Origin: an uncultured Brevinematales bacterium
GTDB lineage: Bacteria; Spirochaetota; Brevinematia; Brevinematales; CAZQBT01
Assembly (NCBI GenBank): GCA_964591955.1
Contig: CAZQBT010000001.1
Span: 371 to 64,370, forward strand
Direction of reading: 5' to 3'
DNA length: 64,000 bases
In this document: positions 251-47,344 of the stretch, piece after piece
Layout: every line of letters begins with the position of its first letter
Position numbering within the stretch: position 1 is the stretch's first letter
Notes under the pieces: model-generated
What the model saw: only the letters and a program-made list of their open reading frames with translations
Databases searched by the model: none
What the model was told of the DNA's origin: nothing
Position numbers and translations under genes: made by a program

Positions 251-3109
251 ATGAAGAAGAATTTATTAAGATTTTTATTAGGAGCTTTTATGGGTATGGG
301 GCTTCTTTTTTCCTGCACATCTCTTAACGAGCTTTTGGATACACAATTCGGAGAAAAAGATACGGCAGTTCCGTTTGTTATGATTACTTCCCCGACAAAC
401 GGAGCAATTGTAAATACGGAAACCATTACTTTAAGCGGAACATCGGATATACAATCCCCGAATACCGTTTCAAAAGTAGAAGTTCAATTAAACGGCGGGG
501 AATGGGCAAACGCAACAGGTACTGCGGAATGGTCTGTTGAAATTAGCCTAAACGAAGGAACTAACGTTATATTAGCAAGAGCTACGGCTGATAACGCGAA
601 AACCGCAGTATCGGATGAATGGAATGTTATTTATGACCCAAGTATGCCTTCCATAACTATTGTATCTCATGAAAACGGGGATTTTGTAAATACCGTAAAT
701 ATCAGTTTTAGCGGAACGGCATTTGTTCAATCTCCTCATTCCATTACGCTTGTTGAAGTTCAATTAAACGGCGGGGAATGGGCGGAGGCTACAGGCACGG
801 ATAACTGGTCTATTAATCTTAATCTTAACGAAGGCGCTAATACGGTATTAGCAAGGGTAGAAGCCGACAACGGAAAAACCTCATCTTCCGCATTAATAAT
901 CATAAATCTTGACACTATCGCGCCAATGATAACTATCAGCAGTCCGACAAACGGGCAGGAAGTCGGATCAAGTTACCAATTTATGGGAACCGTCTCCGAC
1001 AATTTCGCCGGTGTTGACAAGGTTTTCTATAACACAGACGGCGGAGAATGGTTTGAAGCCGATATTGACGGAACTAACTGGAGTGTAATAATAAATGTTG
1101 ATGATTACGGCCAACATACAAACCGTGCTTTTGCAATAGATATGGTCGGCAATTCATCATCCACAAACTTTGTATGGATTGAACGCACAAGCGTTCCTTC
1201 AATAAACATAACCTCTCATTTCAACGGCGAACCCGTCCTTGAAAGCGAAATAACTTTGGAAGGAACGGCAAGCGTAGATACCCCATATATTATTACCTCC
1301 GTTGAGGTGAAACTTAATGAGGAAGGCTGGGAAAGCGCTACAGGCACGGATAACTGGTCGGCTAACCTCAGTCTTAACGAGGGTAAAAATACAATAATAG
1401 CGCGCGCACATTCGGACAGCGGAAAAAGCGCATCGGTTGAATGGACTATATACTACGACCCCGCTATTTTTGTATGCACCACCGGAAATGACGAAAATTC
1501 AGGGACAAGACTCGCTCCCGTAAAGAGTATTCAAACCGCTCTATCAAAAGCGCAGACTTTGGGTTTAAACAATATATACGTTGCTTCAGGACGTTATATA
1601 AGAGGAACCGGGTTAAACGCCTCAAGTTTAATCCATAATTACAGCGGGGTACGTATAGGTATTTCGGATATTACACTGCTCGGCGGTTGGAACAGCAGTT
1701 TCAGCGAAAGAACGGGAAAAAGCGAATTAGACGCGGAATCGGGTTTATACCATGTAATTTGGATTGACAACGTTGACAACGTTACCATAGACGGGTTTAT
1801 AATCCGCAACGGCAACGCAAACGATTCAACAACTGCACATCAACGCGGTGGCGGAATTTATATTGATCAGGGAAACGGGCATACAATACAAAATACTGAA
1901 ATTTCAGAAAACCGTGCGCTTACTCTCGGCGGAGGAGTGTATATCAATCAGGGTGAAAACCATACTGTTGATACAACAATAAACCTCAACTTGGCAAACA
2001 ATAATCACGGCGGAGGAATTTACTTACATCAAGGAACAAGCCACACTATTAAAGGCAATATTACCGATAACACCGCCAATCAATACGGCGGAGGAGTATA
2101 TATAAGCGCGGGAACAAGTCATACCGTAGAAGCAGATATTTCCGGTAACACAGCTAATACATACGGCGGAGGAGTATATATAACGGGAGGTAACACTCAC
2201 ATTATTGATGCAAATATTTCCGGTAATACCGGAAATACACGCGGAGGCGGTGTATATATAAATCAAGGAACTTCCTTTACAATATCGGGAACTATTGCCG
2301 ATAACGAATCTGCCTTAGGCGGAGGAGTATATATTTGGTATGGAACTACACATACTCTAAACGGTTCCATTATAGGAAATAATAGTACTACAGACGGAGG
2401 AGGTGTCTGTGTGTGGTATGGAACTACCCACACAATAAATGCCACTATCAAAGAAAATTCCGCTATCAGAAACGGCGGAGGGATTTACATGGAACGAAGT
2501 TCGGGACACTCCATAGGCGGAACTATTAGCGGTAATACGGCAAATACCAATGGTGGAGGAATTTACGTTAATATCGGGACAAGCTACACATTAAGCGGAA
2601 CCATCAGCAGTAACTCTGCACGAAACGGTGGAGGAATGTTTGTAAATCAGGGAACAGGACATAATGTAACTGCAACTTTAAATGAAAACTCTGCTACTCA
2701 GTCGGGAGGAGGTGTTTACTTAAATAATAGCACAAATAACTCATTAGGTGGAAATATTAAGAAAAATACTGCAAATAACGGTGGTGGTGTTTATTTATCA
2801 CGAGGAAGTTTGCATACTTTAAACGCAACAATTTCTGAAAATACTGCGCTAATTGGAGGAGGGGTATATATTGATATTGGCAAAGACCACACGATACGTG
2901 GCAATATAAGCGGTAACACAGCATCCAGCACCGGCGGAGGATTATATTTATTAGATATAAATCCCAATACTACGCTTATTTTCAATGCACCAACCATACA
3001 AGCCAATTCAAATTATGGAATTTCAAGATATGGAAGTACTTCTTTTCCTCAAGGGTTAGATACAATCAACTGGGGAACGGGGAATAGTCCTGCTAATAAG
3101 AACTGGTAA
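251..3109 (+). CDS. Large surface/secreted lipoprotein: Ig-like modules, right-handed beta-helix and about 17 polymorphic-membrane-protein-like (GGG[VI]Y) repeats
   Basis: ATG is preceded by GGAGG. The signal peptide has lipobox LLFSC. Four copies of an approximately 70-aa module are present (ITLSGT...VEVQLNGGEW..ATGT..WS..L.L.EG.N.ILARA). The segment FVCTTGNDENSGTRLAPVKSIQTAL..IYVASGRY is typical of beta-helix proteins. It is followed by a 25-26 aa periodic repeat N-T-A-x-x-GGGVYI-x-x-G-T-S-H-T-I-x-G-x-I-S-G. A paralog lies at 23295-25760. Confidence 0.85.
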   Translation: MKKNLLRFLLGAFMGMGLLFSCTSLNELLDTQFGEKDTAVPFVMITSPTNGAIVNTETITLSGTSDIQSPNTVSKVEVQLNGGEWANATGTAEWSVEISLNEGTNVILARATADNAKTAVSDEWNVIYDPSMPSITIVSHENGDFVNTVNISFSGTAFVQSPHSITLVEVQLNGGEWAEATGTDNWSINLNLNEGANTVLARVEADNGKTSSSALIIINLDTIAPMITISSPTNGQEVGSSYQFMGTVSDNFAGVDKVFYNTDGGEWFEADIDGTNWSVIINVDDYGQHTNRAFAIDMVGNSSSTNFVWIERTSVPSINITSHFNGEPVLESEITLEGTASVDTPYIITSVEVKLNEEGWESATGTDNWSANLSLNEGKNTIIARAHSDSGKSASVEWTIYYDPAIFVCTTGNDENSGTRLAPVKSIQTALSKAQTLGLNNIYVASGRYIRGTGLNASSLIHNYSGVRIGISDITLLGGWNSSFSERTGKSELDAESGLYHVIWIDNVDNVTIDGFIIRNGNANDSTTAHQRGGGIYIDQGNGHTIQNTEISENRALTLGGGVYINQGENHTVDTTINLNLANNNHGGGIYLHQGTSHTIKGNITDNTANQYGGGVYISAGTSHTVEADISGNTANTYGGGVYITGGNTHIIDANISGNTGNTRGGGVYINQGTSFTISGTIADNESALGGGVYIWYGTTHTLNGSIIGNNSTTDGGGVCVWYGTTHTINATIKENSAIRNGGGIYMERSSGHSIGGTISGNTANTNGGGIYVNIGTSYTLSGTISSNSARNGGGMFVNQGTGHNVTATLNENSATQSGGGVYLNNSTNNSLGGNIKKNTANNGGGVYLSRGSLHTLNATISENTALIGGGVYIDIGKDHTIRGNISGNTASSTGGGLYLLDINPNTTLIFNAPTIQANSNYGISRYGSTSFPQGLDTINWGTGNSPANKNW

Positions 3110-7022: not shown

Positions 7023-7601
7023 CTATTTATAGTTGACTTTGTAATTACCTGAGCCGGAATTAATGTCGGTGGATTCGAGAAAAACGTTAAAATACTTGAC
7101 TTTAGTAAGCCCGAAATTAAATTCAAGGTCTTGTAGAACGCGCTGCTGGATACGCTCGGAGAATCTGATAAAATCGTTTTTCTCGTCAATATCAAGCCAA
7201 ATACTAATACCGATACTTTTTTCCTTTAAGAGATTTACCCTGACCTCAACGGAATCCACTCCGCTAATTTGCGAAACGGTATCGTGAATAAAAGAGGCGA
7301 TAGCGGTATCGCTTAATAAAACCGTGCCTTTCTCGCAAGTAACCCTGATATAAGAAGTGGCAATCGCTTCATAGACCGAAAATGCAACAACGAGAAGCGG
7401 AAGTGAAATCAAAACCCCGGCGGAAATTCCGATAAACCTGAAAGCCGGCATCCCGGTTCGATTAAGAAAAATATAATCCAAGTCGGCGCCGGGAACGTAG
7501 GTAAGAAACACGCGATAAAGCAAGAAACCCGCTATAATAGAAATTGCACAAAATGAATATAGTAAAACCTTTCTTGTAGTGCTAATCCACTTCTTTTTCA
7601 T
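7023..7601 (-). CDS. Asp23-domain membrane protein (AmaP-like)
   Basis: N-terminal TM helices followed by an Asp23-like C-terminal region (VDSVEVRVNLL..IGISIWLDI). The likely start is the ATG at 7601; the track start at 7604 is TTG. It follows the asp23-like gene. Confidence 0.45.
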   Translation of the reverse strand: MKKKWISTTRKVLLYSFCAISIIAGFLLYRVFLTYVPGADLDYIFLNRTGMPAFRFIGISAGVLISLPLLVVAFSVYEAIATSYIRVTCEKGTVLLSDTAIASFIHDTVSQISGVDSVEVRVNLLKEKSIGISIWLDIDEKNDFIRFSERIQQRVLQDLEFNFGLTKVKYFNVFLESTDINSGSGNYKVNYK

Positions 7602-7899
7602 CAAATATATCCTTAACGTTTAATTCAAGCGACTTGATTTGAACACCCGCGAGATTTAACAAATTTTCGCTTAAGGACTTTGAAAGCCTGTCGAGAGTTT
7701 TGCCTATCTCCCTTCCGAATTTCACTGTTACATCAATACTTATAAAAAGCGAAGAGTTCCCCGAATACTTAATCCGTAGCGGAGTATTGGAAAACTTGCG
7801 CAAAAACTTCCGCGAATAAAGACAAATGTCCTCATCTTTATCCACGGTAAGCCGTATCAGGGTTTCAAGACTCGATTTATCCACGATAAAACGCTTCAT
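7582..7899 (-). CDS. Asp23/Gls24-family protein (YqhY-like)
   Basis: 105 aa. The segment ISIDVTVKFGREIGKTLDRLSKSLSENLLNLAGVQIKSLELNVKDI matches the Asp23 core pattern. It sits directly downstream of accC, as in Firmicutes. Confidence 0.55.
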   Translation of the reverse strand: MKRFIVDKSSLETLIRLTVDKDEDICLYSRKFLRKFSNTPLRIKYSGNSSLFISIDVTVKFGREIGKTLDRLSKSLSENLLNLAGVQIKSLELNVKDIFDEKEVD

Positions 7900-9264: not shown

Positions 9265-9702
9265 TTAAGATTTTTCTATTCGCATAATGGGTTGACCGTA
9301 TTCAATAGGCTGCCCCTCTTCGACAAGAATCTCCTTGAGTTTCCCGTCAACCTCTGCCTTGACCTCCTGAAGCACGCCGAGAACCCTGACAAGCGCAATA
9401 ATATCGCCCTTTTTAACCTCATCGCGAAGTTTTAAAAAATAGTCGCCTGTTTTGGGATTAAGACGGGTAAAAAAGCCCACCCACTTGGAAACAACATCAA
9501 TAACTTTATTATCCTGAACTTTGGGTTTATCATCCTGAGACACGGGAGCAGACAAAGGCGCTGTCTGTGAAACCGCCGGCGCGGCAGACTGTTTCCCGCC
9601 GATACAAAACCTCAATTTCTGGTCTCCGTTATGTATCTCAACCTCACCTATATCGGTGTCCTCAAAAATCTTATAAATTTCCTTGATGTCTTTAATGCTC
9701 AT
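9265..9702 (-). CDS. accB: Biotin carboxyl carrier protein homolog lacking the biotinyl-lysine
   Basis: ATG at 9702 is preceded by GGAGGTG; the track start at 9717 is TTG. The C-terminal 70 aa align without gaps to the E. coli BCCP biotinoyl domain, but the E-A-M-K-M-M position reads R-V-L-G-V-L (codon GGC). Confidence 0.85.
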   Translation of the reverse strand: MSIKDIKEIYKIFEDTDIGEVEIHNGDQKLRFCIGGKQSAAPAVSQTAPLSAPVSQDDKPKVQDNKVIDVVSKWVGFFTRLNPKTGDYFLKLRDEVKKGDIIALVRVLGVLQEVKAEVDGKLKEILVEEGQPIEYGQPIMRIEKS

Positions 9703-9723
9703 TGTAGCCACCTCCAAACGGAA

Positions 9724-10281
9724 TTATTTAACTCTTTCAATATACCTGTCATCACGGGTATCAACTTTAATTTTTTCACCCTGACTTATAAAAAGCGGAA
9801 TCTGAACAACCGCGCCGCCCTCAAGCTTTGCAGGCTTGCTCCCCCCGCTAACCGTATTGCCTCTTTCGCCGGGGTCGGTTTCGACTATTTCCAACTCTAC
9901 AAACATAGGCGGTTCGACTAAAATCACTTCACCCGAATATATATGCAAAATACAAACCATCTCGTTTTTAAGATATTTTGCGGCATCCTCTACCTTATCG
10001 TAGGGGATATGGTATTGCTCGAAATTTTCGTTATCCATAAATACATAAGTGTCGCCCTCCTTATAAAGAAGCTGTGCCTCGCGCTTTTCAACATACGCCT
10101 CTTCAAACGTATCTCCTCCGCGAAAAGTCTGCTCCTTTACCACTCCTTTCGTAAGATGCTTGAGCTTGGTTCTCATAATAGCTCCGCCCTTACCCGGCTT
10201 ATGATGCTGGCACCAGGTAACAAGCCATAATTCACCGGCGATATTAATTACCATTCCTTTCTTAATCTGGGTATAATCCAT
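9724..10281 (-). CDS. efp: Elongation factor P
   Basis: 185 aa with the KPGKGGA loop motif and three-domain EF-P length. Confidence 0.95.
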   Translation of the reverse strand: MDYTQIKKGMVINIAGELWLVTWCQHHKPGKGGAIMRTKLKHLTKGVVKEQTFRGGDTFEEAYVEKREAQLLYKEGDTYVFMDNENFEQYHIPYDKVEDAAKYLKNEMVCILHIYSGEVILVEPPMFVELEIVETDPGERGNTVSGGSKPAKLEGGAVVQIPLFISQGEKIKVDTRDDRYIERVK

Positions 10282-10329
10282 ATATTTTTCTCCCTGAGTG
10301 AAGCATTTAATTTAAAATTACCGAGTGAA

Positions 10330-10358
10330 ATTATATCAGAATTTTCATAATATTTCAA
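10330..10358 (-). promoter_or_regulatory. Sigma70-type promoter of the efp-accB-accC-asp23 operon
   Basis: The minus strand reads TTGAAA (10358-10353), a 17-nt spacer, then TATAAT (10335-10330), about 50 nt upstream of the efp ATG. Confidence 0.55.
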
Positions 10359-10402
10359 ATACTTGAGGCGTGAAACTTAAACTTACCAATCAGGATTCGC
10401 TT

Positions 10403-13400
10403 CTAATGCCTGATTACACGGTCAAACGGGTAAATCTCCTCAATCGTGATTTTCCCGTCCTTAACTCCGCCCTTTACAAGATAAACGGAATTTTTTTTAA
10501 TCACCCCTGAGTAATGAGAAAACGTTTTCGGGAATATTACCGCCTCCGCAATACCGGTATTATCCGATAAAAGACAAAACGCCATACTCGCTTTGGATTT
10601 GGTCTTGGTTATCCTCAGCTTATACAGATAAGCCACCGCGACTATATATTCAAGTTTTTCAATATCCGCGATACAGTCAACCTCAAGACGTTCAATCTCC
10701 TCACGGTATATGTCGATAGGATGGAAAGTCAAAAACAAGTCCGTCGCCGAATTTTCCATCTCGAAATATTCGATTTTCCTTTCTTCATCTGAAACCGAAT
10801 CATCTCTCAACTCTTTAGGAATAAGCGCATCAAGAGAAACCCCGTTATTAACTGTTTCTTTTTCATATTTATCAAAAAGCGTCCCTTCATAATGTGCATC
10901 GGTTTTATCCTCACCCGGCAATTTAATTTTAACAATATCGTTTAGCGATGCAATAAGGGCGTTTCTTGAAAACCCCTGATTATCGAAAGCCCCGACCCGT
11001 ATAAGATACTCGGCAGCCTTGATATTCAACCCCTTGTCCTTCATCCTGATATAAAAATCCAGCAAATCGCGAAAATCGCCGTTATTATTCCGTTCTTTAA
11101 CTATTGCACGTGCCAGCCGTCGCCCGACATATTTAACTATAATGAACCCCACCCTGATTCCCCGCATCTCTATCCTGAATAAAACCCCGCTCTTATTTAT
11201 ATCCACCCCGAAAACCGTATAGTTATGGAGTTTCATATCGGAGATATAACGGTTAAGTCTTGATACAAAACCGATATTATTATTTAGCGAAGATAAATAA
11301 AACTCAAGCGGATAGTTCGCCTTGAGATAAGCCCCCGCAAACGCGTTATATGCATAGGCAAGCGAATGGGACCGGTTGAACCCGTAACTTCCGAAATCAA
11401 CCAAAATCCCGAATATACGGTTAGCATATTCCTCTTCAAGCCCCTTTTTGAGACACCCGCGTATAAACTCATCTTTAAGCCCGATAATCGTAGCCTCATC
11501 CTTATTGGAAAGAGCCTTGCGTAGAATATCCGCCCTGTCCCATCCCATTCCGCCGAAATTATGCGCAATCTGTAAAATCTGTTCCTGATAGACAATAAGC
11601 CCGTAGGTTTCGCTTGTGATAACGCCGAGATATTTGTCGGACACGGCGGGGGTAATCCCGTTATGACGTTTCACGTATTCATCCAGCATACCGGACTTTA
11701 TAGGACCGGGACGGTAAAGAGCAATCACATCGCTAAGCCTCGATATATTTTCGGGACGGATTTTCTTAAGCAAATCCCGCATCCCGCCGCTTTCAAGCTG
11801 AAATACCGCAGTAGTATCCCCTTCGCTTAAAATCCTTTTTGCATCGTGGTCTTCAAAATTAATAGTATCTATTCCGCAATGACGCATCGTCTCATCAATG
11901 ATTGTAACAAATCGCAAACCGAGCAAATCGATTTTAATAAAGCCCGTGCCGTCAAGGTCGTCTTTGGTAATCTGCACGACAAGTTCGCCGCTCCTTGAAT
12001 ATTCGGAGGATGCATATTTATCAATCCCCATCGGCAAGACAACAAATCCCCCCGCGTGAACCGAACTATGCGATACTATACCCTCAATCCGTGAAACAAT
12101 ATCAAGAAAGCTCCTGACTTCCGGGTCGTTATGAATCATATCGCGAAGAACCCTGTTGGTCTTAATCAAGTTTTTTATTCTCGTATAGGAATACATAGTA
12201 AAAGGAATTTGCTTCAGGATAGCATCAAGTTTAATCTTGGACAGCTTGAAAGCCTTTGCAATCTCGCGAAGAGCCGAACGCGCCATAAGTCTGCCGAGCG
12301 TCGAAATATGAGCAACGTTCTTTTGACCGAATTTTGTCGCCACATATTCAAACACTTCCTTGCGACGTTTCCAGCACACGTCAATATCTATATCGGGTAA
12401 TTCTTTTCTCGCGGGATTTAAAAAGCGTTCAAACATCAGATTGTTCAAAACCGGGTCAACTTTAGTAATTCCCAGAAGGTATAAGGTAAGCGAAGATACC
12501 GATGAGCCTCTTCCCCACCCGAAAGGAATCCTGCGATTTTGCATAAATCGCGCTATATCGCCCACTATCAGGAAAAAATGGTTTAACTCAAGCTCCTCAA
12601 TAACGGAAAGCTCATAATCGAGACGGGTTAAATATTCCTTGTTGTCGGAAAGTTTAAGTTTTTCAAGACGTTTCATACACAGGTCGCGTAATTTTTCGGG
12701 ATACTTATATACCTGCGGTATCTTAAACGACTTTATGTCCAAATTAACGTCAATACTTTCAAAAAGGTTTTGGGCGTTTTCGATATAGTCGGGATGGTTC
12801 TTAAAGATATTTTCCATATCTTCGGGTTTTCTAACGGAATAATCCATATCAATATCCAACGGGAGACCTCTCTCGTTTTTGGAATGGCTTTTCATCCTGT
12901 ATGAGTTCAAAAATTCAAAAGCCTCCCTGTCGGTATGAAAATATCGCGCCTCACAACATCCTATCGCGGGTATGGCAATACTTTCCGCACGGGATATTAA
13001 TTCCTTTAAAACCTCGACTTTTTTATGCCCGGTATAATTAACCTCAAGGAAAAAATTTTTACCGAAAGTATCCATATACCTTTCGCCAATCCGTTGCATA
13101 GTAACGTAATTATCCAGATGGAAAACAAACTCCGCCTCGACTATGGCACAAAGTCCCTCACTATGGCTCTGCACCGTATTAAACGGAAGCGTATAACTCC
13201 CGTCTTTTTGGAAAAGTTCCTGCGCATAGGAATTGAGTTTAAAAATATTCGATAACCCCTGATTATTAAGAGCAATTAAAATAAAGGGGTAATGGCCTCT
13301 GCCGCTTACCCCTTTAGTAAATATCTCTAATCCGTAAACAGGTTTAATATTACGTGAATTGCATAGTTTTGTAAGTTTAAAAAAACCGTAAGTTGAAAGA

Positions 13401-13522
13401 GTGTCGACAACCGCGACACCCTTAAAATTATGAAAAACGCTAAATTCCACAAGCTCTTCAAGACGAATAAGCGAACTTAGAAACGAGTATTCCGTATGGT
13501 TGTGGAAATTTATAAACGCCAT
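10403..13522 (-). CDS. dnaE: DNA polymerase III alpha subunit
   Basis: 1039 aa with a PHP domain (FHNHTEYS), catalytic PDIDIDV, an HAGG motif and a C-terminal OB fold. It is shorter than E. coli-type DnaE, with no extension after the OB fold. Confidence 0.95.
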   Translation of the reverse strand: MAFINFHNHTEYSFLSSLIRLEELVEFSVFHNFKGVAVVDTLSTYGFFKLTKLCNSRNIKPVYGLEIFTKGVSGRGHYPFILIALNNQGLSNIFKLNSYAQELFQKDGSYTLPFNTVQSHSEGLCAIVEAEFVFHLDNYVTMQRIGERYMDTFGKNFFLEVNYTGHKKVEVLKELISRAESIAIPAIGCCEARYFHTDREAFEFLNSYRMKSHSKNERGLPLDIDMDYSVRKPEDMENIFKNHPDYIENAQNLFESIDVNLDIKSFKIPQVYKYPEKLRDLCMKRLEKLKLSDNKEYLTRLDYELSVIEELELNHFFLIVGDIARFMQNRRIPFGWGRGSSVSSLTLYLLGITKVDPVLNNLMFERFLNPARKELPDIDIDVCWKRRKEVFEYVATKFGQKNVAHISTLGRLMARSALREIAKAFKLSKIKLDAILKQIPFTMYSYTRIKNLIKTNRVLRDMIHNDPEVRSFLDIVSRIEGIVSHSSVHAGGFVVLPMGIDKYASSEYSRSGELVVQITKDDLDGTGFIKIDLLGLRFVTIIDETMRHCGIDTINFEDHDAKRILSEGDTTAVFQLESGGMRDLLKKIRPENISRLSDVIALYRPGPIKSGMLDEYVKRHNGITPAVSDKYLGVITSETYGLIVYQEQILQIAHNFGGMGWDRADILRKALSNKDEATIIGLKDEFIRGCLKKGLEEEYANRIFGILVDFGSYGFNRSHSLAYAYNAFAGAYLKANYPLEFYLSSLNNNIGFVSRLNRYISDMKLHNYTVFGVDINKSGVLFRIEMRGIRVGFIIVKYVGRRLARAIVKERNNNGDFRDLLDFYIRMKDKGLNIKAAEYLIRVGAFDNQGFSRNALIASLNDIVKIKLPGEDKTDAHYEGTLFDKYEKETVNNGVSLDALIPKELRDDSVSDEERKIEYFEMENSATDLFLTFHPIDIYREEIERLEVDCIADIEKLEYIVAVAYLYKLRITKTKSKASMAFCLLSDNTGIAEAVIFPKTFSHYSGVIKKNSVYLVKGGVKDGKITIEEIYPFDRVIRH

Positions 13523-13526
13523 AAAC

Positions 13527-15002
13527 TTACATCATTGCATCAAGAGTTCGCTGGAGTTGCCGTGCCGCTCCGCTGATAAAGGAGCTGAACACTCCGCCCT
13601 CACTTTCCGATGTTCCGCTTAAACGAACCGACCGTGAGGATATTAACTCGCCGGTTTCGGTATCCACAAGCTGTGCCGCAACGCTATACATCGCGCGATA
13701 CCTGCTGATTGTGGTTTCGTAAGACGGTTTAGCGTTGGCATCAACAACCAGCACAAAGACTCTCTTTATACCCTGATTGGAAAGCTGACGTAACGCCGCT
13801 GCGTTCATATTAACCACGCCGTCAACGGATACGTTAGACGGAAACCTCACTACGGTAAAGCCTCTGCCCAACAGATAGCTTTGCATCTCGGATGTTAATT
13901 GAGGGATATTGGAAAACCTTCCGCCCTCTTCCTTGATAGCAATAACGGAACTGGTAATCTTACGATGAGCTTCCGAAACAACGCGAACCGTAGTTGTTCC
14001 GGCAACTCTTTCCATTGTATTTCTCAAAGTAGAGTAATATCTTTCCATATCGCCTTCAATATTGCGAATCTCCTCAAGGGTAACGCCGAGACGGGCATAA
14101 ATAACCGTATTGTTGTTGACCTGAGCAAGACGGTTTATAACGAATTTTGCCTCACCGTTGTTGTCGGTGGAAGCGGAACGGGAATAATCGCCTGTGTTGT
14201 TCCTGATAGAAAAGTCGAGTCTTGCGCCTCTGACGGGAATACGGGTTTCGCCCGCGTAGGTCAGTTTAAACCCGACCTCCGACTTTGCCTGAGTATCTAC
14301 CGTGTCGGGAACATCGGATGGCTCAATCATAAGGTTAGCAAGAATCCTGTTGGCATTGTTAATATAAATCATAAAGTCTTCCTGCCTGTCCTCAACCTTG
14401 GTTGAAGCAACCGCGGCGCTTAGATACGAATTAAACGCATCAATAACCCTGCCGTCTCTTAACTGTTGTTCAGCCTCGCGGACATTTCTGTCAACCATCT
14501 CAAGTTTACGCTTTAATTCATCCATAACGCGTTTGCGTTCCTGTTCGACCGTTGACCTTGGGATTTTCGCAAGAACCCACGCACGGGTAATATCAAGGCC
14601 TCCCTCGTTGTAAGTATGAAAATGATTTTTTTCGGTTTCTATACCCGAAAGATTAGCCTGACTTCGGGTTTGCATAGCGCGCTGATAATCCTCCTGAAGA
14701 GCGCCCTCTCCTGCAAGATTCCCATAGGTGTTGAATAACTCATCTACCGTAACGCGTTCAAAGATAAACGAGGATATTCTCGCGGTAGCATCGGCAACGG
14801 CGGAACGCCGAACCTCGGTCGGGTCCGATATATCCTCTGCAAAACCTACAAAATAATAGTATTCCGAGGATTGCGGGGGGTTATCCACCCAGTCGGGAAG
14901 CGATGCTCTACTTGGAGGTCTTGTAGCGCTATCCCCCCCTTTACAAGCAAAAAACGCCCCTATTAAAACCATACTCATAACCGCACAAAAAAACTTTTTC
15001 AT
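13527..15002 (-). CDS. Lipoprotein of unknown function
   Basis: Signal peptide with lipobox FFAC and GGAGGG before the ATG. It has a central coiled-coil-like segment. Its stop is 4 nt before the dnaE start. Confidence 0.7.
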   Translation of the reverse strand: MKKFFCAVMSMVLIGAFFACKGGDSATRPPSRASLPDWVDNPPQSSEYYYFVGFAEDISDPTEVRRSAVADATARISSFIFERVTVDELFNTYGNLAGEGALQEDYQRAMQTRSQANLSGIETEKNHFHTYNEGGLDITRAWVLAKIPRSTVEQERKRVMDELKRKLEMVDRNVREAEQQLRDGRVIDAFNSYLSAAVASTKVEDRQEDFMIYINNANRILANLMIEPSDVPDTVDTQAKSEVGFKLTYAGETRIPVRGARLDFSIRNNTGDYSRSASTDNNGEAKFVINRLAQVNNNTVIYARLGVTLEEIRNIEGDMERYYSTLRNTMERVAGTTTVRVVSEAHRKITSSVIAIKEEGGRFSNIPQLTSEMQSYLLGRGFTVVRFPSNVSVDGVVNMNAAALRQLSNQGIKRVFVLVVDANAKPSYETTISRYRAMYSVAAQLVDTETGELISSRSVRLSGTSESEGGVFSSFISGAARQLQRTLDAMM

Positions 15003-18294: not shown

Positions 18295-20313
18295 ATGAAA
18301 AGATTGGCTTTGTTTTGTTCGGCAATAATCTTTGTTTTGGCACAAGCGGGTTTTGCCGAATTGCCGGAGGTTACCCGTTCGTTTTATCATCTGCCGTTCA
18401 GTAACGGCGTAGGCGCGGGAATATATCAGGCGCGCCCGAACGGGGGAAGATTATTATATTTCTACGAAAGTATTTACAAACAATACAGCGAGGATAGCCC
18501 GCTTACCCGTTCTTACCTTAGAAGAAAGGGCGTAACTTGGGGTATCAATAACACGTGGCTTGATGATGCCCCTGTCAGCGATGCCGAATATATAGACGGA
18601 ACAGGCATAGTCCGCGTATTCAAAGAAGTTCCGAAAAACAGAAATATTTCCGCCGTCGAGTATTATTATATGCCGATGGAATTGGATAAACGGATTATCG
18701 TAACGGTGCTTGAGTTTGAAAATACCGGGCTTTTTAGAAAACGCATTAAACCGTATATATATGTAGATGCAAATATGGGAGCGCGTGAAAAAGTCCGCAG
18801 GGAAGACAATTTCTTTATACAGGGCTTGGATATGGAAGCGCCCCGTCGCGAACCCAAGAGTTTTGTTATACTTTCGCCGGAAGTCTCCTCATTCAGCTAT
18901 AAACCTCTATCGCAGTATCCCCGCGAGGTTAGAGAACGTCCCGTAGAACTCGACAACAAATTGGTAAAAAGCGGGCGCAGTCTTATCGGAGTTCTTCAGT
19001 TTGATGAAATAACGCTTAGACGAGGAGAAAAAGCGAGGGTGATGGTAGTTTTGGGACTTGCCGATAAAGAAGAGGAAGCGGAATACAAATCCGATATGCA
19101 AAAGATTTTCGATAAGACCGCAGAGGTCGCTATCGGTGAAGAGATGAAGTGGTGGGATGATTGGCACGCTGTCGCCAAAATACCCGACTGGCTAAGCTAT
19201 GAGGAAAAACGTCTGTATCGCCAGTCCGCGGCGGTTTTAAAGATGGGTCAATGCCGTGAACCGGGAAAACCTTACGGGCAAATTCTTGCAAGTCTCCCTC
19301 CCGGAAACTGGAATATCTGTTGGCCTCGTGATGCCACGTATGGGCTTGTTGCGCTCGCGCAGATGGGGCATTTTTACGAAGCAAAGGCTGGTCTTGAATT
19401 TATGCTTAACGCTCCCAACGGAAAATTCGATTCTAAAGAATTTGTCGGCGTTCCATATAAAATTTCCGTATGCAGGTATTACGGAAACGGCGATGAGGAA
19501 AGCGATGAAAACCAGTCCGGTCCTAACCTTGAGTGGGATAATTTCGGGCTTGTGCTTTGGGCTATTTGCGAATATCTCGACCAAAGCGGAGACAAGGAAT
19601 TTTTGGATAAACATTACAAGACCATAAAAGAACTTATCGCCGACGTAATAGTCCATCTTATGACCGACAAGGGATACTTGAGAAGAGACTCTTCTATCTG
19701 GGAACGGCACTGGGAACCCCAAATCCATCCCGACGGGCGAAAATATTTCGCATACTCAACAATCAACGGATACCACGCTTTAAAGCGTTTTGCAAAATAT
19801 TGCCCACCCGCTACGGAGGCTCATTACCTTAAAATGGCGGAAAAAATCAAAGAGGGTTTCCTCAATCATTTTATAGATGAAAACAACAATGTAATAGTCG
19901 CTAATCTTGAAGAAAAGCCCCAGGGTATAAACCACTATATGGATGCTTCAGTGGTTGAAGCGATTAATTTCGGTATGGTCGATGAGACTGTGGCTAAAGC
20001 AACGCTTCAGGCGTTTGAGGATAAACTCGGTATGAGACGTTCCCCCGGATTCCATCGCAACGACGACGGAACCTGGTATGACCGTCAGGAATGGCTGATT
20101 ATAGATATGAGAATCGCACAAGCATATTACCTTATGGGCAATAAAGAACGCGCACAGGAGCTTATGGATTGGGTTCTTCTAAACGCCAAAAATAATTTCT
20201 ACCTTATACCGGAACTTTTGGATGAGAGGAATTTATCGTTTAAGGGAGAAGTCCCGATGGTTGGGTTCGGACCCGGTTGCTATATTATAAATAAATTCCT
20301 GATTGAAAAATAA
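18295..20313 (+). CDS. Secreted glycoside hydrolase family 15-like protein (glucoamylase/glucodextranase-related)
   Basis: Signal peptide present. [13 protein letters not shown] and SIWERHWE motifs are typical of the GH15 (alpha/alpha)6 catalytic domain. Confidence 0.75.
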
Positions 20314-21504: not shown

Positions 21505-21671
21505 CTCAACCCCTTGTTTCTACCTGTATTATTTTAAAGGAAATTGTAAAAATAGTCAAACTATCAATTACTGAATATCCAACTTTCAGTTAAAACATAT
21601 TCTTGAATTATAGTCAAATACTGGAAATTTACGCCTAAACCGTGTATATTATACATAAGGAGGAAAGTATT

Positions 21672-22415
21672 ATGATTAAATACCTAACCATATTTCTTCT
21701 AATATCGGGGGTTTTACCGTCCATAGCTTCAGCTAACCCCTCGCTGACATTCCTGAACCGGATGCTTTCGGGCGCGGATTTGGAAACGGGTAAAAGCATA
21801 GCCCGTCTATCAGGCGGAAGAGAACTTCTTACGGATAACCCAGCCAACTATGCAATTTACGAAAAACTTGAAGCGCATATCCGAAGTATGAACGCCGGTA
21901 TCCGTAACACTCAGGATATGATTTCATATTACCGATTTATGGATGCCACCTTTGAAACAGTTACCGATACTCTTCAGCGAATCAGGGAACTCGCATTGAG
22001 ACGCTCAAACTCCCTGTTGTCGGATTTCGACAGGAGTATTATAGACGGGGAAATGCTTATGCTCTATGAACATATCCGTTATACCCTGAGTCAGGCGGAA
22101 TTTAACCGCGTAAAGATATTTGCGGACTTGCTTGAATCGGAGGCGTTTAAAGACCTGTTCGCCGATGAAAGATATTATATCCTCGGCAATATAGACCGTA
22201 TGCTGAATTTCTTTCTTAGTGAACGCGCAAATATCGGAGCAAGCGCAAACCGTCTGCAAAGCCAAATAAGGTCGCAGATGATGGAGGTTGAGCAAACCGT
22301 GTCTTTCCAAACCCGCGGCGATACCGATTTCGGTGTCGAGGTGTCGAATTTTTACCGTCAACATCTGAAACTAACGGTAAATATCCTTCTGCTTGAAACG
22401 GAACTCAAGCGATAG
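21672..22415 (+). CDS. Minimal flagellin-fold protein with a predicted Sec signal peptide
   Basis: ATG at 21672 lies 8 nt after AAGGAGG. The N-terminus is MIKYLTIFLLISGVLPSIASA|NP. The flagellin-N pattern is RLSGGRELLTDNPANYAIYEKLEAHIRSMNAGIRNTQDMISYYRFMDATFETVTDTLQRIRELALRRSN. The flagellin-C pattern is ANIGASANRLQSQIRSQ... Confidence 0.7.
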   Translation: MIKYLTIFLLISGVLPSIASANPSLTFLNRMLSGADLETGKSIARLSGGRELLTDNPANYAIYEKLEAHIRSMNAGIRNTQDMISYYRFMDATFETVTDTLQRIRELALRRSNSLLSDFDRSIIDGEMLMLYEHIRYTLSQAEFNRVKIFADLLESEAFKDLFADERYYILGNIDRMLNFFLSERANIGASANRLQSQIRSQMMEVEQTVSFQTRGDTDFGVEVSNFYRQHLKLTVNILLLETELKR

Positions 22416-23294: not shown

Positions 23295-25760
23295 TTACCA
23301 GTTCATATCTTCAGGCGTATTTCCGTTTCCCCAGTCGATTGTGCCGATACCCTCCGGGGTGCTGTTGGCATCCCATCTATACACTCCATACCCCGTATTA
23401 TCTTCTATGGTGGGGGAATCAAACGTATGCGTATCATTAGCGGAAGTGTCATAGAAATATACCCCGCCTCCGTTCAGGTCCGCCGTGTTGCCCGATATAG
23501 TCCCGCTTATTGTGTGGCTTGTGCCCTGATGGACATATACACCGCCGCCCCAATCATTAGCCGTGTTGCCTGTTATAGTTGCGTTAATAGTGTGGTTTTC
23601 GCCTCTATCAACAAACATACCGCCACCGTAAGCATTAGCCGTATTGCCCGATATAGTCCCGCTTATTGTATGACTTGTTCCTCTATTCACATACACACCG
23701 CCACCCTCATCTGCCGTATTGCCCGTGATAGTCCCGCTTATTGTGTGGCTTGTGCCCTCATTGACATATACACCGCCGCCCCTACCATTAGCAGCCGTGT
23801 TGCCTGTTATAGTTGCGTTAATAGTGTGGTTTTCACCATATTCTACATACACACCGCCACCGTGAGTACTAGCCGTATTGCCGCTAATAGTCCCGGTAAT
23901 AGTGTGGCTTGTGCCATCCCTCACAAACACACCGCCTCCTTCTTCACCGGTTACCGTATTATCAGTGATATTTGCACTAATAATGTGTCCTGTGCCTTCT
24001 TCCACATACACCCCGCCTCCATATCCATCCGCAGTGTTACCCGATATAGTCCCGCTTATAGTGTGGCTTGTGCCCTGAATGACATATACACCGCCCCCGT
24101 AACCGTCATTTACCGTGTTGCCTGATATAGTTGCGTTAATAATGTGGGTTTCACCATATTCTACAAATACACCGCCTCCGCCGTAATTCGCAGTGTTGTC
24201 CGATATGGTACCGCTAACAGTGTGATTTTCACCATGTTCTACAAATACACCGCCTCCGTCCCAACTCGCAGTGTTGCCCGATATGGTACCGCTTATAGTG
24301 TGGTTTGAGCCGTAATAAACATTCACACCGCCCCCATATTGAGCCGTGTTGTTGGATATGGTACCGCTAACAGTGTGGCCTGTGCCACTCGCGAGATACA
24401 CCCCGCCTCCGTAATTATCTGAGGTGTTACCCGATATGGTCCCGCTTATTGTGTGGCTTTCGCCTCTATCAACAAATACACCGCCCCCTTCCTCCGGTAC
24501 CGTGTTATCTGTGACGGTTGCGCTAATAATATGGTTTGCGCCCTGCGCGAGATACACCCCGCCTCCGTAATTATCTGAGGTGTTACCCGATATGGTACCG
24601 CTCATAGTGTGGCTTGTGCCTAGATGCATATACACCCCGCCTCCGTCATCATCCGCCGTGTTGTTGGATATTACCGTGTTTTGTATAGTATGCCCGCTAC
24701 CTTGATTAATATAAATCCCGGCACCGGAATTATGAACGCTTGTAACTCCATCAGCAAGCCCGCCGCGGATAACAAACCCGTCGATAGTTATATCCTCCAC
24801 GTCGTCAATCCATAGAACATGATATAACCCGGATTCCGCGTCTAATTCACTCTTCCCGTTGCGTTCGGTAAAACTGCTGTTCCATCCGCCGAGGATAGTC
24901 AACCCCGCGACATCTATAAACGCCCCGCTGTATTGATAATCCTCGTTTGCAGTATTCAGACCTTCTCCCGGGGTGTAAACACCTTCCGCCACGTAAATTG
25001 ATAATATACCAAAATCCTGCGCATTTGATATAGCGTTTTGAATACTCTTTAATGGAGCAAGACTTGTTGTTCCGGAATTGGCATCATCCCCCGTAGTGGA
25101 TACAAACATAGTGGGAACGTAATTTATAGTCCATTCAACCGATGCGCTTTTTTCGTTGTCCGAATGTGCGCGCACTATTATTGTATTATCCCCACCGGTA
25201 AGACTTAGGTCTGCCGACCAGCTATCCGTGCCTGTAGCGCTCTCCCAATCTTCCTCGTTAAGTTTTACCTCAACGGAGGTAATAACAAATGGGTCGGCTA
25301 CGCCTGCCGTTCCGCTGAGCGTTATATCAGCCTCATTCACATAAGCTCCGTTATCGTGTGATTGAATTTCGACTGAAGGCGCTGATGGGTCATAATAAAT
25401 AATCCACTCGCCTGATGATGCGGTTTTCCCGTTAGACCCCGTAGCTCTTGCTACAATAGTATTAGTCCCCTCATCAAGAGTAAGTTCAACAGACCACTCG
25501 GTCTTTCCATCCGCCTGTTGCCATTCCGCGTCATTGAGTTTAACCTCAACTTTGGAGATACTTGCAGGCGAGGAGATACTTGCAGTCCCGCTTAAAGTGA
25601 TAACCGCAACGTTTACGGTAGCGCCGTTAGCGGGTGATACAATCGTAACCGAAGGTGTAGGCTTACTATCATCCATATCTTCATCCGCCGGACTACACCC
25701 AAAGAAAACCATCCCTAAACCACCCAACAAAACCATCATTAAAAAAACCAATTTCTTCAT
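23295..25760 (-). CDS. Paralogous Pmp-repeat beta-helix lipoprotein
   Basis: ATG at 25760 follows GGAGG; the track start at 25787 is TTG. Lipobox FFGC is present, with three Ig-like modules, a beta-helix entry region and many GGGV[YF]V repeats. The C-terminus GTIDWGNGNTPEDMNW parallels DTINWGTGNSPANKNW of the 251-3109 protein. Confidence 0.85.
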   Translation of the reverse strand: MKKLVFLMMVLLGGLGMVFFGCSPADEDMDDSKPTPSVTIVSPANGATVNVAVITLSGTASISSPASISKVEVKLNDAEWQQADGKTEWSVELTLDEGTNTIVARATGSNGKTASSGEWIIYYDPSAPSVEIQSHDNGAYVNEADITLSGTAGVADPFVITSVEVKLNEEDWESATGTDSWSADLSLTGGDNTIIVRAHSDNEKSASVEWTINYVPTMFVSTTGDDANSGTTSLAPLKSIQNAISNAQDFGILSIYVAEGVYTPGEGLNTANEDYQYSGAFIDVAGLTILGGWNSSFTERNGKSELDAESGLYHVLWIDDVEDITIDGFVIRGGLADGVTSVHNSGAGIYINQGSGHTIQNTVISNNTADDDGGGVYMHLGTSHTMSGTISGNTSDNYGGGVYLAQGANHIISATVTDNTVPEEGGGVFVDRGESHTISGTISGNTSDNYGGGVYLASGTGHTVSGTISNNTAQYGGGVNVYYGSNHTISGTISGNTASWDGGGVFVEHGENHTVSGTISDNTANYGGGGVFVEYGETHIINATISGNTVNDGYGGGVYVIQGTSHTISGTISGNTADGYGGGVYVEEGTGHIISANITDNTVTGEEGGGVFVRDGTSHTITGTISGNTASTHGGGVYVEYGENHTINATITGNTAANGRGGGVYVNEGTSHTISGTITGNTADEGGGVYVNRGTSHTISGTISGNTANAYGGGMFVDRGENHTINATITGNTANDWGGGVYVHQGTSHTISGTISGNTADLNGGGVYFYDTSANDTHTFDSPTIEDNTGYGVYRWDANSTPEGIGTIDWGNGNTPEDMNW

Positions 25761-25906
25761 AATCAACCTCCTAAAATTTATACCCAAAAAGGATTATGTT
25801 TCCCCGCAAACTTGGAATAAAAAAAATTCGCCACACCGTATAGGCACAACACATAATTATATATCCAATAAATAAATGTTTTTAAATTTCACCCTTTTAT
25901 ATGCGT

Positions 25907-26065: not shown

Positions 26066-26917
26066 ATGTTTATTAAAATCATCAAGCATGGGTTTTCACG
26101 ATGGTGGGATAAGATGGGATACGCGGTGCTGACGTCCTTTTTGTCGGCGATTAACCCGTTTTTTCTCGCTACTATGGTTTTTATATTGCTCGGTTTGCTT
26201 ATAGAGGATAAATCGGTATTGATTGAAAATATACGGTTAATCCTGATGGTTTTACCGCCGGTGGTTTTGGCGACTGCGGTATTCCCCACAACTTTTGCGG
26301 GAATTGCCGTGCAGAAACAGGTCGCGGAAAACGAGACTATGTATTTCAAGCGGTATTTCCCCGATTATTTTAAACTTTTGTGGAAATTCCTCCCGAAATC
26401 TTTATTGCTCTCGCTTATATATATCGCAGTGGGATTTCTGTTGAGTTACAGCGCGATTTTCTATTTCAGCGTCATTGAAAATATAGTATTCCGCGGTATA
26501 GCGGTGCTTGTGGTTATATGGGTTTACCTGTTTTTGTTACTTTCGAGATTTATACTGATACCGCTTATAATCTACAACCCGGAAATGAAGCTATCCGATG
26601 CCATTAAAATTTCGTTTAAGATAGTGCTTGCCGAGGGATTGGCGATACTGGGAATTGTCATTATCGACTTTCTGGTATGGGTCGCGCTTACAATGACACG
26701 ATTCTTTTTCCTGTTTATATATTACGGTTTATCGGCTAATCTCAGGATTTTTACCCACAAGGAAATTATTGCCAAATACACAAAGAAAGATGAAACGGAT
26801 AATAAGGAAAAGGATTCGGATACCCGCGAGGCGTGGGCGGGAATAATGAAAAAGATGCGCGAAAACTCCGATTCATCCGGTAATATGGAGGACACCGGCA
26901 ATGAAACAAAAAAATAA
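26066..26917 (+). CDS. Polytopic membrane protein of unknown function
   Basis: 283 aa with about 5-6 hydrophobic helices and an acidic/lysine-rich C-terminal tail. GGGAG precedes the ATG. Confidence 0.6.
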   Translation: MFIKIIKHGFSRWWDKMGYAVLTSFLSAINPFFLATMVFILLGLLIEDKSVLIENIRLILMVLPPVVLATAVFPTTFAGIAVQKQVAENETMYFKRYFPDYFKLLWKFLPKSLLLSLIYIAVGFLLSYSAIFYFSVIENIVFRGIAVLVVIWVYLFLLLSRFILIPLIIYNPEMKLSDAIKISFKIVLAEGLAILGIVIIDFLVWVALTMTRFFFLFIYYGLSANLRIFTHKEIIAKYTKKDETDNKEKDSDTREAWAGIMKKMRENSDSSGNMEDTGNETKK

Positions 26918-31723: not shown

Positions 31724-32608
31724 TCAGCCGAATAGGTTTTTGAAAAATTTTCGCCAGCCGGCTTCTTCCTCGGGAATATCTATATTCATAAGCCGCCTGC
31801 CTATATGGTTCACACAAAGAGAAACGTTGGATTTCGGGGCAAGTGCAACAAAAGGTATTTGACGCCTCACTGCATCGCTTACCACCTGTTCATCATAGAT
31901 AAACCCGATATTTTCGATTTTAACATTAAGAAACTGCCCTGCAATCTCAATAATCTTATGCGCTACTTTAGCGCCCTCGGCAGCATTTCTCACACGATTG
32001 ACAACCAGCTTGATATTCGGAATTTCCGACTCTACAACGATAGATTTAATTATACCATAAGCATCGGTAATAGCCGTGGGTTCGGGAGTGGTAACAACGA
32101 CCGTTTCATGAGCGGAGATAACAAATTTCACTACGTTATCGGAAATACCCGCCGATGTATCAATTATGATATAGTCGGCATCGCTAATCTCCGCCAATCC
32201 CTCAATAAAATTTTTCTTTTGCTTATCATCCAAATTGGCAAGTTGAGCAAATCCTGAAGCGCCCGCAATAATATCTATACCGTAATCGGTAGAGGTGATA
32301 ATCTCATCCATACGCTTCTGCCCGCGCATAACGTGAAGCAAATTATGCTTCGGGATTACGCCCAAAAGAACGTTTACATTAGCAAGCCCCAAGTCCGCAT
32401 CCATAACAATAACCCTTCTCTTAACTTCCTTCTCGGAATTGGGGTCTTTCATATGAGCAAGAGTAATACCCAAATTAACCGCAAAATTGCTTTTACCGAC
32501 ACCGCCCTTGCCTGAAGTTACGGCAATTATCTTAGTATCCGTTTTGGGAATCTCTCCCATCATTTTTCTCAAACCTTCCGCTTGATCGGGACCTAATAAA
32601 ACCGACAT
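31724..32608 (-). CDS. flhG: MinD/ParA-type ATPase FlhG (FleN/YlxH)
   Basis: Contains the deviant Walker A SGKGGVGKS and the N-terminal DQAEGLR (DQAxxLR) FlhF-activating motif. It sits directly downstream of flhF. Confidence 0.85.
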   Translation of the reverse strand: MSVLLGPDQAEGLRKMMGEIPKTDTKIIAVTSGKGGVGKSNFAVNLGITLAHMKDPNSEKEVKRRVIVMDADLGLANVNVLLGVIPKHNLLHVMRGQKRMDEIITSTDYGIDIIAGASGFAQLANLDDKQKKNFIEGLAEISDADYIIIDTSAGISDNVVKFVISAHETVVVTTPEPTAITDAYGIIKSIVVESEIPNIKLVVNRVRNAAEGAKVAHKIIEIAGQFLNVKIENIGFIYDEQVVSDAVRRQIPFVALAPKSNVSLCVNHIGRRLMNIDIPEEEAGWRKFFKNLFG

Positions 32609-32631
32609 TTCTACCCTCTTAATAAATCTTT

Positions 32632-33975: not shown

Positions 33976-34002
33976 AAACTCTTTTGGCAAAAAACCCGCC
34001 CG

Positions 34003-36114: not shown

Positions 36115-36130
36115 AAAAACGCCTCATAAT

Positions 36131-38082: not shown

Positions 38083-38129
38083 AAAACCCCTCACAAACAG
38101 AGGTAAAAAAACGCATTACTACGGCAAAA

Positions 38130-38408
38130 CTACAAGCGCGTAGTGGCAATAAGGTCAAAGATACGGTGCGTAAAATCCATCATACTATTACAGGAAAAAG
38201 GTCCTAATACAATCATAAGAATCAAAAGAGCAATAATCTTGGGAACAAAGGTTAAGGTCTGTTCCTGAATAGATGTAGTTGCCTGAAGAATACTGATAAT
38301 AAGCCCGATAATCATAGCCGTTCCAAGCAAAGGCACGGATAAAACGAGAATCTGATAAGCCGAGTCGCGCACAATATCAAGTATTAGTCCTTGCGATAAT
38401 TCCTGCAT
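38130..38408 (-). CDS. fliQ: Flagellar export apparatus protein FliQ
   Basis: 92 aa with two TM helices, at the FliQ position between fliP and fliR. Confidence 0.9.
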   Translation of the reverse strand: MQELSQGLILDIVRDSAYQILVLSVPLLGTAMIIGLIISILQATTSIQEQTLTFVPKIIALLILMIVLGPFSCNSMMDFTHRIFDLIATTRL

Positions 38409-38421
38409 CTATTCCACCTCG

Positions 38422-39180: not shown

Positions 39181-39263
39181 GATTCCCCTCCCTCCGAAAA
39201 AGCGAACAAAAAGATGCAAAAACTGAGAGAGCTATTCCCTCCCATAAAAAGTAAAAATCAAGA

Positions 39264-47330: not shown

Positions 47331-47344
47331 AAAAACCTCCAAAT

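Follow-up and report, generated by a model that had tools for sequence, protein, structure and literature searches.

Introduction

Can a biotin carboxyl carrier protein (BCCP) that has no lysine to which biotin could be attached still serve acetyl-CoA carboxylase (ACC), and, if its carrier function is gone, what would it be kept for? The question is raised by a stretch of 64,000 nucleotides from an uncultured Brevinematales bacterium of the phylum Spirochaetota (assembly GCA_964591955.1, contig CAZQBT010000001.1, positions 371 to 64,370), which as a whole is referred to here as the window and has a G+C content of 42.7%. At the accB position, next to the biotin carboxylase gene accC, this window encodes a BCCP homologue in which glycine stands in place of the biotinylated lysine; the gene and its product are designated accB* and AccB*. 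The original prediction, made from the letters of the window, had pointed out this glycine and offered two readings: either the protein is a regulatory or scaffolding BCCP that cannot be biotinylated and a genuine accB lies at another place, or AccC is paired with an unusual carrier.

Results

AccB* has the plan of a BCCP with glycine at the biotinyl-lysine position

The plan of AccB* is that of a BCCP, with an N-terminal segment, a linker and a thumb-bearing barrel-sandwich domain, and with its gene adjoining accC (Table 1). All of these features are shared with E. coli AccB, which likewise has an Ala/Pro-rich linker and is encoded directly upstream of accC. The phmmer alignment of AccB* with full-length E. 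coli BCCP (4hr7_B) starts at the first residue and runs over residues 1–143. In an AlphaFold2 model built with 56 homologues, the N-terminal segment forms a helix and a β-hairpin with a predicted local distance difference test (pLDDT) score of ∼79, and residues 70–145 are modelled at pLDDT ∼95; the linker between them varies in both length and sequence across the homologue alignment. The best Foldseek matches of the model were 1bdo and 4hr7, with root-mean-square deviations (rmsd) of 1.3–1.5 Å, and the C-terminal domain, which shares 33% identity with that of E. coli AccB, superposes on 1bdo with an rmsd of 1.4 Å and a TM score of 0.89 over 76 columns.

The position of the lysine was examined by alignment against structures in the PDB. 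Over residues 72–143, AccB* and the biotinoyl domain of E. coli BCCP (4hr7_B, 1bdo and 8uxz_B; also 3bdo) align with no gaps, and the segment ‘vrvlgvlqev’ lies opposite ‘veamkmmnqi’, which places Gly109 opposite Lys122. The E. coli hairpin E-A-M-K-M-M-N is thus replaced by R-V-L-G-V-L-Q, and the V-G-D turn by K-L-R-D. Furthermore, Arg in AccB* takes the place of E. coli Glu119, which is important for recognition by BirA. The codon for Gly109 is GGC (9376–9378; gcc on the plus strand). The gapless alignment, the reading of EAMKMM as RVLGVL and the GGC codon had all been part of the original prediction, and they stood up to the phmmer alignment, the structural superposition and direct reading of the sequence. 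A shift in register that would place another Lys at the tip of the hairpin was ruled out by the gapless alignment, by the alignment of homologues and by the superposition, since a confidently modelled domain that fits 1bdo this closely leaves no room for one. Likewise, the profile comparison that the original prediction had proposed put no Lys at the tip, and the Lys six residues further on (K115) is not conserved, being K, V, L, C, T or R in relatives.

The profile scores are in keeping with this mixed character. AccB* passes the gathering threshold of PF00364 (39.8 against 22.1 bits, over profile positions 20–73 of 73) and matches the whole of the BCCP model TIGR00531 (1–156), yet with 77.6 bits it stays below the equivalog cut-off of 115.2. 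It thus lacks both the tip Lys in an (A/V)-M-K-(M/L) hairpin and the curated score of a functional BCCP, and should not be filed as one.

The Gly hairpin is conserved across Brevinematales

A search of 5.8 billion proteins was used to collect relatives, and the best 120 matches were considered. Among the matches listed, 62 clusters display 44–59% identity to AccB*, and every one of the 62 reads H-V-R-V-L-G-[VHI]-[LM]-Q-D at the place of I-[IV]-E-A-M-K-[LM]-M-N-E in canonical BCCPs. Those clusters that carry a name belong to Brevinematales, Thermospira aquatica or ‘Spirochaetes bacterium GWF1_51_8’, and the current annotation of these Lys-less proteins is ‘acetyl-CoA carboxylase biotin carboxyl carrier protein’. 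Across several samples in ENA, JGI and Logan, 17 contigs encode the identical AccB* protein. A scan of GTDB (one genome per species, with two peptide patterns derived from the family itself) recovered ∼20 Brevinematales species, including the complete genome CP053071, all with Gly at the tip; the complete genome of Thermospira aquatica (CP073355) also carries a Gly-tip accB* in the same operon.

In the alignment of 56 sequences, V107, L108, G109 and Q112 of the hairpin, K91, R93 and D94 of the turn and R80 of the thumb are invariant, and conservation is at least 90% for H104, V105, R106 and D113 of the hairpin and for N82, K84 and E87 of the thumb. The ratio of non-synonymous to synonymous substitution rates (dN/dS) of the C-terminal domain among orthologues is 0.007–0.09 (Nei–Gojobori, least saturated pairs, dS 0.9–1.1), these figures being approximate because dS is near 1. 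The domain is under strong purifying selection.

The accB* locus resembles the accB–accC locus of Firmicutes

On the minus strand the genes follow one another in the order dnaE, efp, accB*, accC, asp23 and amaP, and the gaps of 21 and 12 nucleotides on either side of accB*, together with the GGAGGTG site, fit a tightly packed operon. The order efp–accB*–accC is present in every Brevinematales locus, with asp23–amaP downstream in most. The same gene order around accB–accC is seen in Bacillus subtilis (Firmicutes), where accB–accC–asp23 (yqhY)–amaP lies near efp in a locus linked to ACC and lipid homeostasis, although B. subtilis AccB has the normal biotinylated Lys. This likeness supports positional orthology as well as a link to ACC and lipid homeostasis. 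Judged by its sequence and its place in the operon, AccB* appears to be the positional orthologue of AccB with its carrier function lost.

The gene directly upstream of accA in E. coli is dnaE, which here precedes efp–accB*–accC; this proximity of dnaE to acc genes may be a coincidence or an old dnaE–acc linkage.

The partner enzyme AccC is intact

AccC was compared with characterised biotin carboxylases (BCs). With 718 bits against a cut-off of 626.5 it is an equivalog of TIGR00514, and it matches the H. influenzae and E. coli biotin carboxylase structures at E values of ∼1e-163 to 1e-169 (H. influenzae 4mv1, 5e-169). Moreover, all 23 of the E. coli catalytic, ATP-, bicarbonate- and biotin-site residues that were checked (Y82, K116, K159, G163–166, E201, K202, H209, Q233, H236, K238, E276, E288, N290, R292, Q294, V295, E296, H297, R338 and D382) are identical in the AccC of the window and in every Brevinematales copy, in agreement with the canonical accC of the original prediction. 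The sole change in the other Lys-less lineages described below is H236K, in loci L030 and L034. As the residues of the biotin and bicarbonate sites have been kept under constraint, some biotin substrate must exist, and, by analogy with established BC enzymology, AccC would still be expected to carboxylate biotin.

A wider Lys-less family in Spirochaetota

A hidden Markov model (HMM) of the Brevinematales AccB* proteins gave 11,195 matches at E ≤ 0.001 among 1.84 billion cluster representatives. In the best 150 of these, 48 have no Lys at the tip (G in 21, H in 12, N in 7, S in 3, D in 2, and single others), a ranking biased to Lys-less relatives by a query profile without the Lys; neither this search nor the GTDB scan with family peptides is a measure of how frequent Lys-less BCCPs are in general. 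In most of the Lys-less matches the x-V-G-D of canonical BCCPs is replaced by a K-L-R-[DE] turn. Across 353 sequences collected, the tip Lys is missing (G, N, H, S, D or Q instead) in 127 of the 129 that bear the signature [KR][LMIV]R, as against 17 of the 224 without it.

With members from outside Brevinematales as queries, the named matches listed under E = 1e-32 were all uncultured ‘Spirochaetota’, ‘Spirochaetes’ or Brevinematales, save one ‘bacterium’. Two of these family matches (GCA_016214035.1 and GCA_964356905.1) have the order rpmE–efp–accB*–accC–asp23–amaP–DUF2273, and the starfish symbiont COTS27 (AP019861) has a His-type accB* adjoining accC. Loss of the Lys thus characterises a whole family, spread over a large part of the Spirochaetota, and goes beyond the single genome to which the original prediction referred. 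The tip residue is fixed within each lineage and differs between lineages, and this variability (G/N/H/S/D/Q) argues against a chemical role of the tip and for a binding surface. In the literature searched, coverage of which was incomplete, no description was found of a bacterial Lys-less BCCP, nor any link between Brevinematales and ACC, which does not prove absence; the K-L-R-D/E family of Spirochaetota is apparently undescribed.

Several further proteins were met in these searches. Two K-L-R-D members, one at 10001–10453 of locus L035 and the other protein P0116, have a tip Lys in a degenerate context (I-S-L-K-I-P-N-N and I-S-L-K-T-P-N-D), which may be the ancestral state, a reversion or a remaining biotinylation site. 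In Thermogemmatispora spp. (Chloroflexota; loci L032, L033, L036, L037, L038 and L040, at ∼10001–10444), an accB-like gene next to efp has Asn at the Lys position (V-E-A-L-N-V-I-N-E), and accC was not found within 10 kb; these copies appear to form an independent Lys-less lineage outside the K-L-R-D family. Metagenome-assembled genomes (MAGs) of Armatimonadota (L072, L073, L076, L077, L079 and L081) have accB-position genes with Arg or Ser for Lys, adjacent to accC and in most also to efp, one of them in an otherwise canonical hairpin, I-E-A-M-R-L-M-N-D; these are a further independent loss of the attachment site.

Search for another biotin carrier, carboxyltransferase and biotin ligase

The window was searched by motif, with an HMM for canonical biotinyl domains and with Pfam on 48 open reading frames (ORFs). 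None of these turned up accA, accD, birA, a fab gene or a second biotinyl domain, and neither a biotinyl domain nor accA, accD or birA was found in ∼10 kb past each window end. Likewise, neither the window nor its flanks yielded a carrier of the GcdC/MmdC or OadA/PycB type. An ‘EVEAMKAG’ string at ∼40833 lies inside trpC and is not a biotinyl domain.

The surroundings (±10 kb) of ∼90 related loci were scanned with E. coli AccA, AccD, BirA, PlsX, FabH/D/G/F and AcpP from NC_000913.3 as seeds. No match to carboxyltransferase or BirA was obtained within ±10 kb of the Spirochaetota loci, and the sole matches in the scan were FabD and a FabZ-like protein in L026 and FabH in L030, L034 and L035. At 7 kb from accC, one Brevinematales MAG carries fabD together with a FabZ-like gene, which indicates that malonyl-CoA is needed.

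Published inventories of the order were also consulted. The KEGG table of the Brevinema MAG AC_BRV01 lists accA, accD, birA, bioY, fabH, fabD, fabG, fabZ, fabI, fabF, two acpP and plsX, and also oadA, gcdC/mmdC and oadB/gcdB, and it lists no accB, accC or other biotin carboxylase (PMC11092275 Table S2). The genes downstream of efp in this MAG are four without annotation and then gmd, with accC not following efp, and OadA and the GcdC/MmdC type are the only biotin carriers listed (PMC11092275). COTS27 is reported to have complete fatty-acid and biotin modules (PMC7444263). Together, the Brevinema and COTS27 inventories indicate that the order has carboxyltransferase, fatty acid synthesis, biotin uptake and biotin ligation. 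The AC_BRV01 list, which represents one MAG and its KEGG assignment, leans to another kind of carrier over a second ordinary accB, and it hints at ATP-independent synthesis of malonyl-CoA in Brevinema, by transcarboxylation from oxaloacetate. The two readings with which we began are thus supported in part. That the BCCP cannot be biotinylated is upheld by the sequence, the fold and the clade-wide conservation; as between a second accB and an unusual carrier, the Brevinema table leans to the latter.

Other features of the window

The remaining genes of the window include predicted surface proteins, a flagellar export block, a tryptophan operon segment and an anaerobe-type pair for oxidative stress (Table 1). 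The ORFs of a PLP-dependent (pyridoxal phosphate) enzyme and of a Gfo/Idh/MocA oxidoreductase overlap by ∼110 nucleotides, and the upstream start of the former has probably been called too early. At E ≤ 1e-5 no Pfam match was found for the ORFs at 13527–15002 (minus strand, 491 residues), 18295–20313 (plus strand, 672 residues) and 26066–26917 (plus strand, 283 residues).

Table 1. Position of accB*, of its parts and of neighbouring and other genes within the 64-kb window.
Feature	Position	Strand	Remarks
accB* coding sequence (BCCP/AccB homologue without biotinyl-lysine, 145 aa)	9265..9702	-	ORF with ATG at 9702, stop at 9265-9267
N-terminal segment, residues 1-35, MSIKDIKEIYKIFEDTDIGEVEIHNGDQKLRFCIG	9598..9702	-	homologous to E. 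coli BCCP N-terminus
Ala/Pro/Gln/Ser-rich flexible linker, residues 36-66	9505..9597	-	pLDDT <50 for residues 36-60
C-terminal barrel-sandwich (biotinyl-type) domain, residues 67-145	9268..9504	-	pLDDT ~95
‘Thumb’ insertion RLNPKTGDYF, residues 80-89	9436..9465	-	typical of ACC-type BCCPs; gapless, same length as E. coli
K-L-R-D signature, residues 91-94	9421..9432	-	in place of canonical x-V-G-D turn; marks Lys-less family
Hairpin L-V-R-V-L-G-V-L-Q-E, residues 104-113	9364..9393	-	Gly109 at biotinyl-Lys position
Shine-Dalgarno-like GGAGGTG	9709..9715	-	6 nt before accB* ATG at 9702; read from sequence
accC, biotin carboxylase, 448 aa	7906..9252	-	starts 12 nt past accB* stop
efp, elongation factor P	9724..10281	-	directly upstream of accB*; TIGR00038 236.7 bits
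Asp23-family gene	7582..7899	-	downstream of accC; PF03780 E = 2e-05, under cut-off; copy in relatives annotated Asp23
amaP, alkaline-shock membrane anchor	7023..7604	-	end of conserved block; NF033218 55.6 bits vs cut-off 55
dnaE	10403-13522	-	directly upstream of efp
Predicted surface protein	251-3109	+	N-terminal Big_7/Glucodextranase-B immunoglobulin (Ig) domain, then right-handed beta-helix (NosD-like) repeats
Predicted surface protein	23295-25787	-	Big_7/Glucodextranase-B Ig domain, NosD-like beta-helix repeats, Chlamydia PMP repeats
Short flagellin-N-only gene	21642-22415		
Flagellar export block	31724-39219	-	fliP, fliR, flhB, flhA, SRP54-type GTPase (flhF-like), MinD/ParA-type ATPase (flhG-like)
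Tryptophan operon segment	40117-43916	-	trpE, fused trpG-trpD (glutamine amidotransferase + anthranilate phosphoribosyltransferase, 531 aa), trpC
Desulfoferrodoxin and rubrerythrin	46938-47851	-	side by side; anaerobe-type oxidative-stress pair
PLP-dependent enzyme ORF	49875-51146	-	GTG start
Gfo/Idh/MocA oxidoreductase ORF	51034-52002	-	
Large ORF, 1352 aa	52437-56495	-	

Discussion

The closest family to AccB* by sequence and fold is bacterial AccB, and the closest by mode of action is plant BADC. BADC1–3 resemble BCCP but have no AMKL motif and carry no biotin; they interact with BC and BCCP, and the BC subcomplex is modulated or assembled by them (PMC11926652, PMC12706156), and BADC has been described as unique to the plant enzyme (PMC11926652). 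AccB* shares the trait of a BCCP-like fold without a biotinylation motif, and differs in that it is bacterial, that the positional accB orthologue is itself the Lys-less copy, and that no canonical AccB was seen in the window or within ±10 kb of the loci. BADCs, confined to plants and green algae as far as we know, are extra paralogues beside functional BCCP1 and BCCP2. As all named members of the family are Spirochaetota and its nearest outside relatives are bacterial BCCPs, AccB* looks like a bacterial product of independent origin, likened to BADC by description. A further comparison is offered by the AccE/epsilon ‘glue’ subunits of actinobacterial acyl-CoA carboxylases, which likewise are small and non-catalytic and assemble or activate the biotin carboxylase complex (PMC11926652), although their fold is unrelated and not derived from BCCP.

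The reading that we prefer, at a probability of roughly one half, makes AccB* a BADC-like scaffold or regulator, non-catalytic and partnered with AccC, and has the CO2 carried on another biotinyl protein. Its N-terminal segment would bind AccC, as the N-terminal part of E. coli BCCP binds biotin carboxylase, reportedly a finding of Choi-Rhee and Cronan in 2003. The dead carrier domain, which may form a conserved docking surface together with the thumb, would dock on AccC or bridge to the carboxyltransferase, and AccB* would thereby organise or throttle the complex. The CO2 would be borne by biotin on a different protein. Foremost among the candidates are biotinyl domains of the GcdC/MmdC or OadA type, from a sodium-pumping decarboxylase; these are the only biotin carriers listed in a Brevinema MAG that has AccA/AccD and complete type II fatty acid synthesis. 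We know of no organism in which GcdC/MmdC gamma subunits or OadA/PycB C-terminal domains serve AccC and AccA/AccD.

Several points weigh against this reading. BADCs coexist with true BCCP paralogues, whereas here the accB at its own position is the dead copy. A biotinyl domain was absent within ±10 kb in all loci scanned. The genus Brevinema seems to be without accB* and accC, so that to apply the AC_BRV01 inventory to the lineage of the window is an extrapolation, and in genomes that do bear AccB* the search for a second accB, accA and accD was confined to the locus ±10 kb.

A bolder extension of the preferred reading is put forward tentatively, and we consider it doubtful. A large branch of the Spirochaetota would have an ACC without any AccB-type carrier, in which AccC and AccA/AccD share a biotinyl protein borrowed from a sodium-pumping decarboxylase (GcdC/MmdC or OadA), or non-covalent biotin, with AccB* as the enabling adaptor; Brevinema would have lost AccB* and AccC, and its malonyl-CoA would come from oxaloacetate through a transcarboxylation that needs no ATP.

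An alternative that we regard as unlikely is that AccB* and AccC no longer serve ACC, and that AccC is a PycA-like, ATP-dependent biotin carboxylase for an OadA/PycB-type subunit, as in two-subunit pyruvate carboxylase, with AccB* as assembly adaptor or relic. The intact AccC needs some biotinyl substrate, OadA is listed in the related Brevinema MAG, two-subunit enzymes with a separate BC subunit exist (5ks8), and AccB* itself gives a weak domain-level match to pyruvate carboxylase subunit B (NF006761, 43.7 bits). However, the score of AccC lies above the accC equivalog cut-off and below those of PRK08654 and PRK05586, the dead domain is conserved more strongly than a relic would be, and the asp23–amaP operon is the one tied to ACC and lipid homeostasis in Firmicutes.

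It is improbable that the system here works with no covalent biotin on an AccB-type carrier. In such a system free biotin would sit non-covalently in AccB*, between its thumb and the remodelled Gly hairpin, to be offered to AccC and the carboxyltransferase; alternatively, AccB* would make AccC active on free biotin. Conservation in AccB* is highest in the thumb and hairpin, the surface that touches biotin in holo-BCCP, AccC has kept its biotin-site residues, and no other carrier was found nearby, in the window or in the ±10 kb loci. E. coli BC and carboxyltransferase do accept free biotin in vitro; in known systems, however, it is a very poor substrate of BC. Variation of the tip and its flanks by lineage (VLGVLQD, SMHIxxE, SMNLQYE) is hard to square with one conserved ligand pocket, the presence of BirA and BioY in the order implies that covalent biotinylation is in use, and no precedent for such a mechanism is known.

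Attachment of biotin, or possibly of another cofactor, elsewhere on AccB*, at an invariant lysine such as K91 or K121, would be a most improbable solution. K84, K91, K97, K121 and K123 are indeed invariant or nearly so, yet none is in the M-K-M-like context of a hairpin tip, which is what biotin protein ligases recognise in this fold (2ejf-type complexes), and in the gapless alignment K121 stands opposite T134 of the E. coli protein, within a strand instead of a turn. Finally, a sequencing or assembly error (of which the single-base kind had already been judged unlikely in the original prediction) or a decaying pseudogene, for which only the missing Lys and the sub-threshold TIGR00531 score speak, is refuted by clade-wide conservation, with an identical protein on 17 independent contigs from several samples, the motif in 62 clusters and ∼20 species, an intact ORF with a ribosome-binding site, low dN/dS and a confident fold prediction.

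The biotinyl-lysine of BCCP is regarded as essential to fatty acid synthesis in bacteria, and here an entire lineage of bacteria has long kept the gene at the accB position after that lysine was lost. Since the Lys-less proteins are named as BCCP, pathway reconstructions may count them as functional AccB. If the preferred reading is true, Brevinematales would offer a simple bacterial system for the role of a ‘dead’ carrier in the assembly or control of ACC, and would raise the testable question of which protein carries the CO2.

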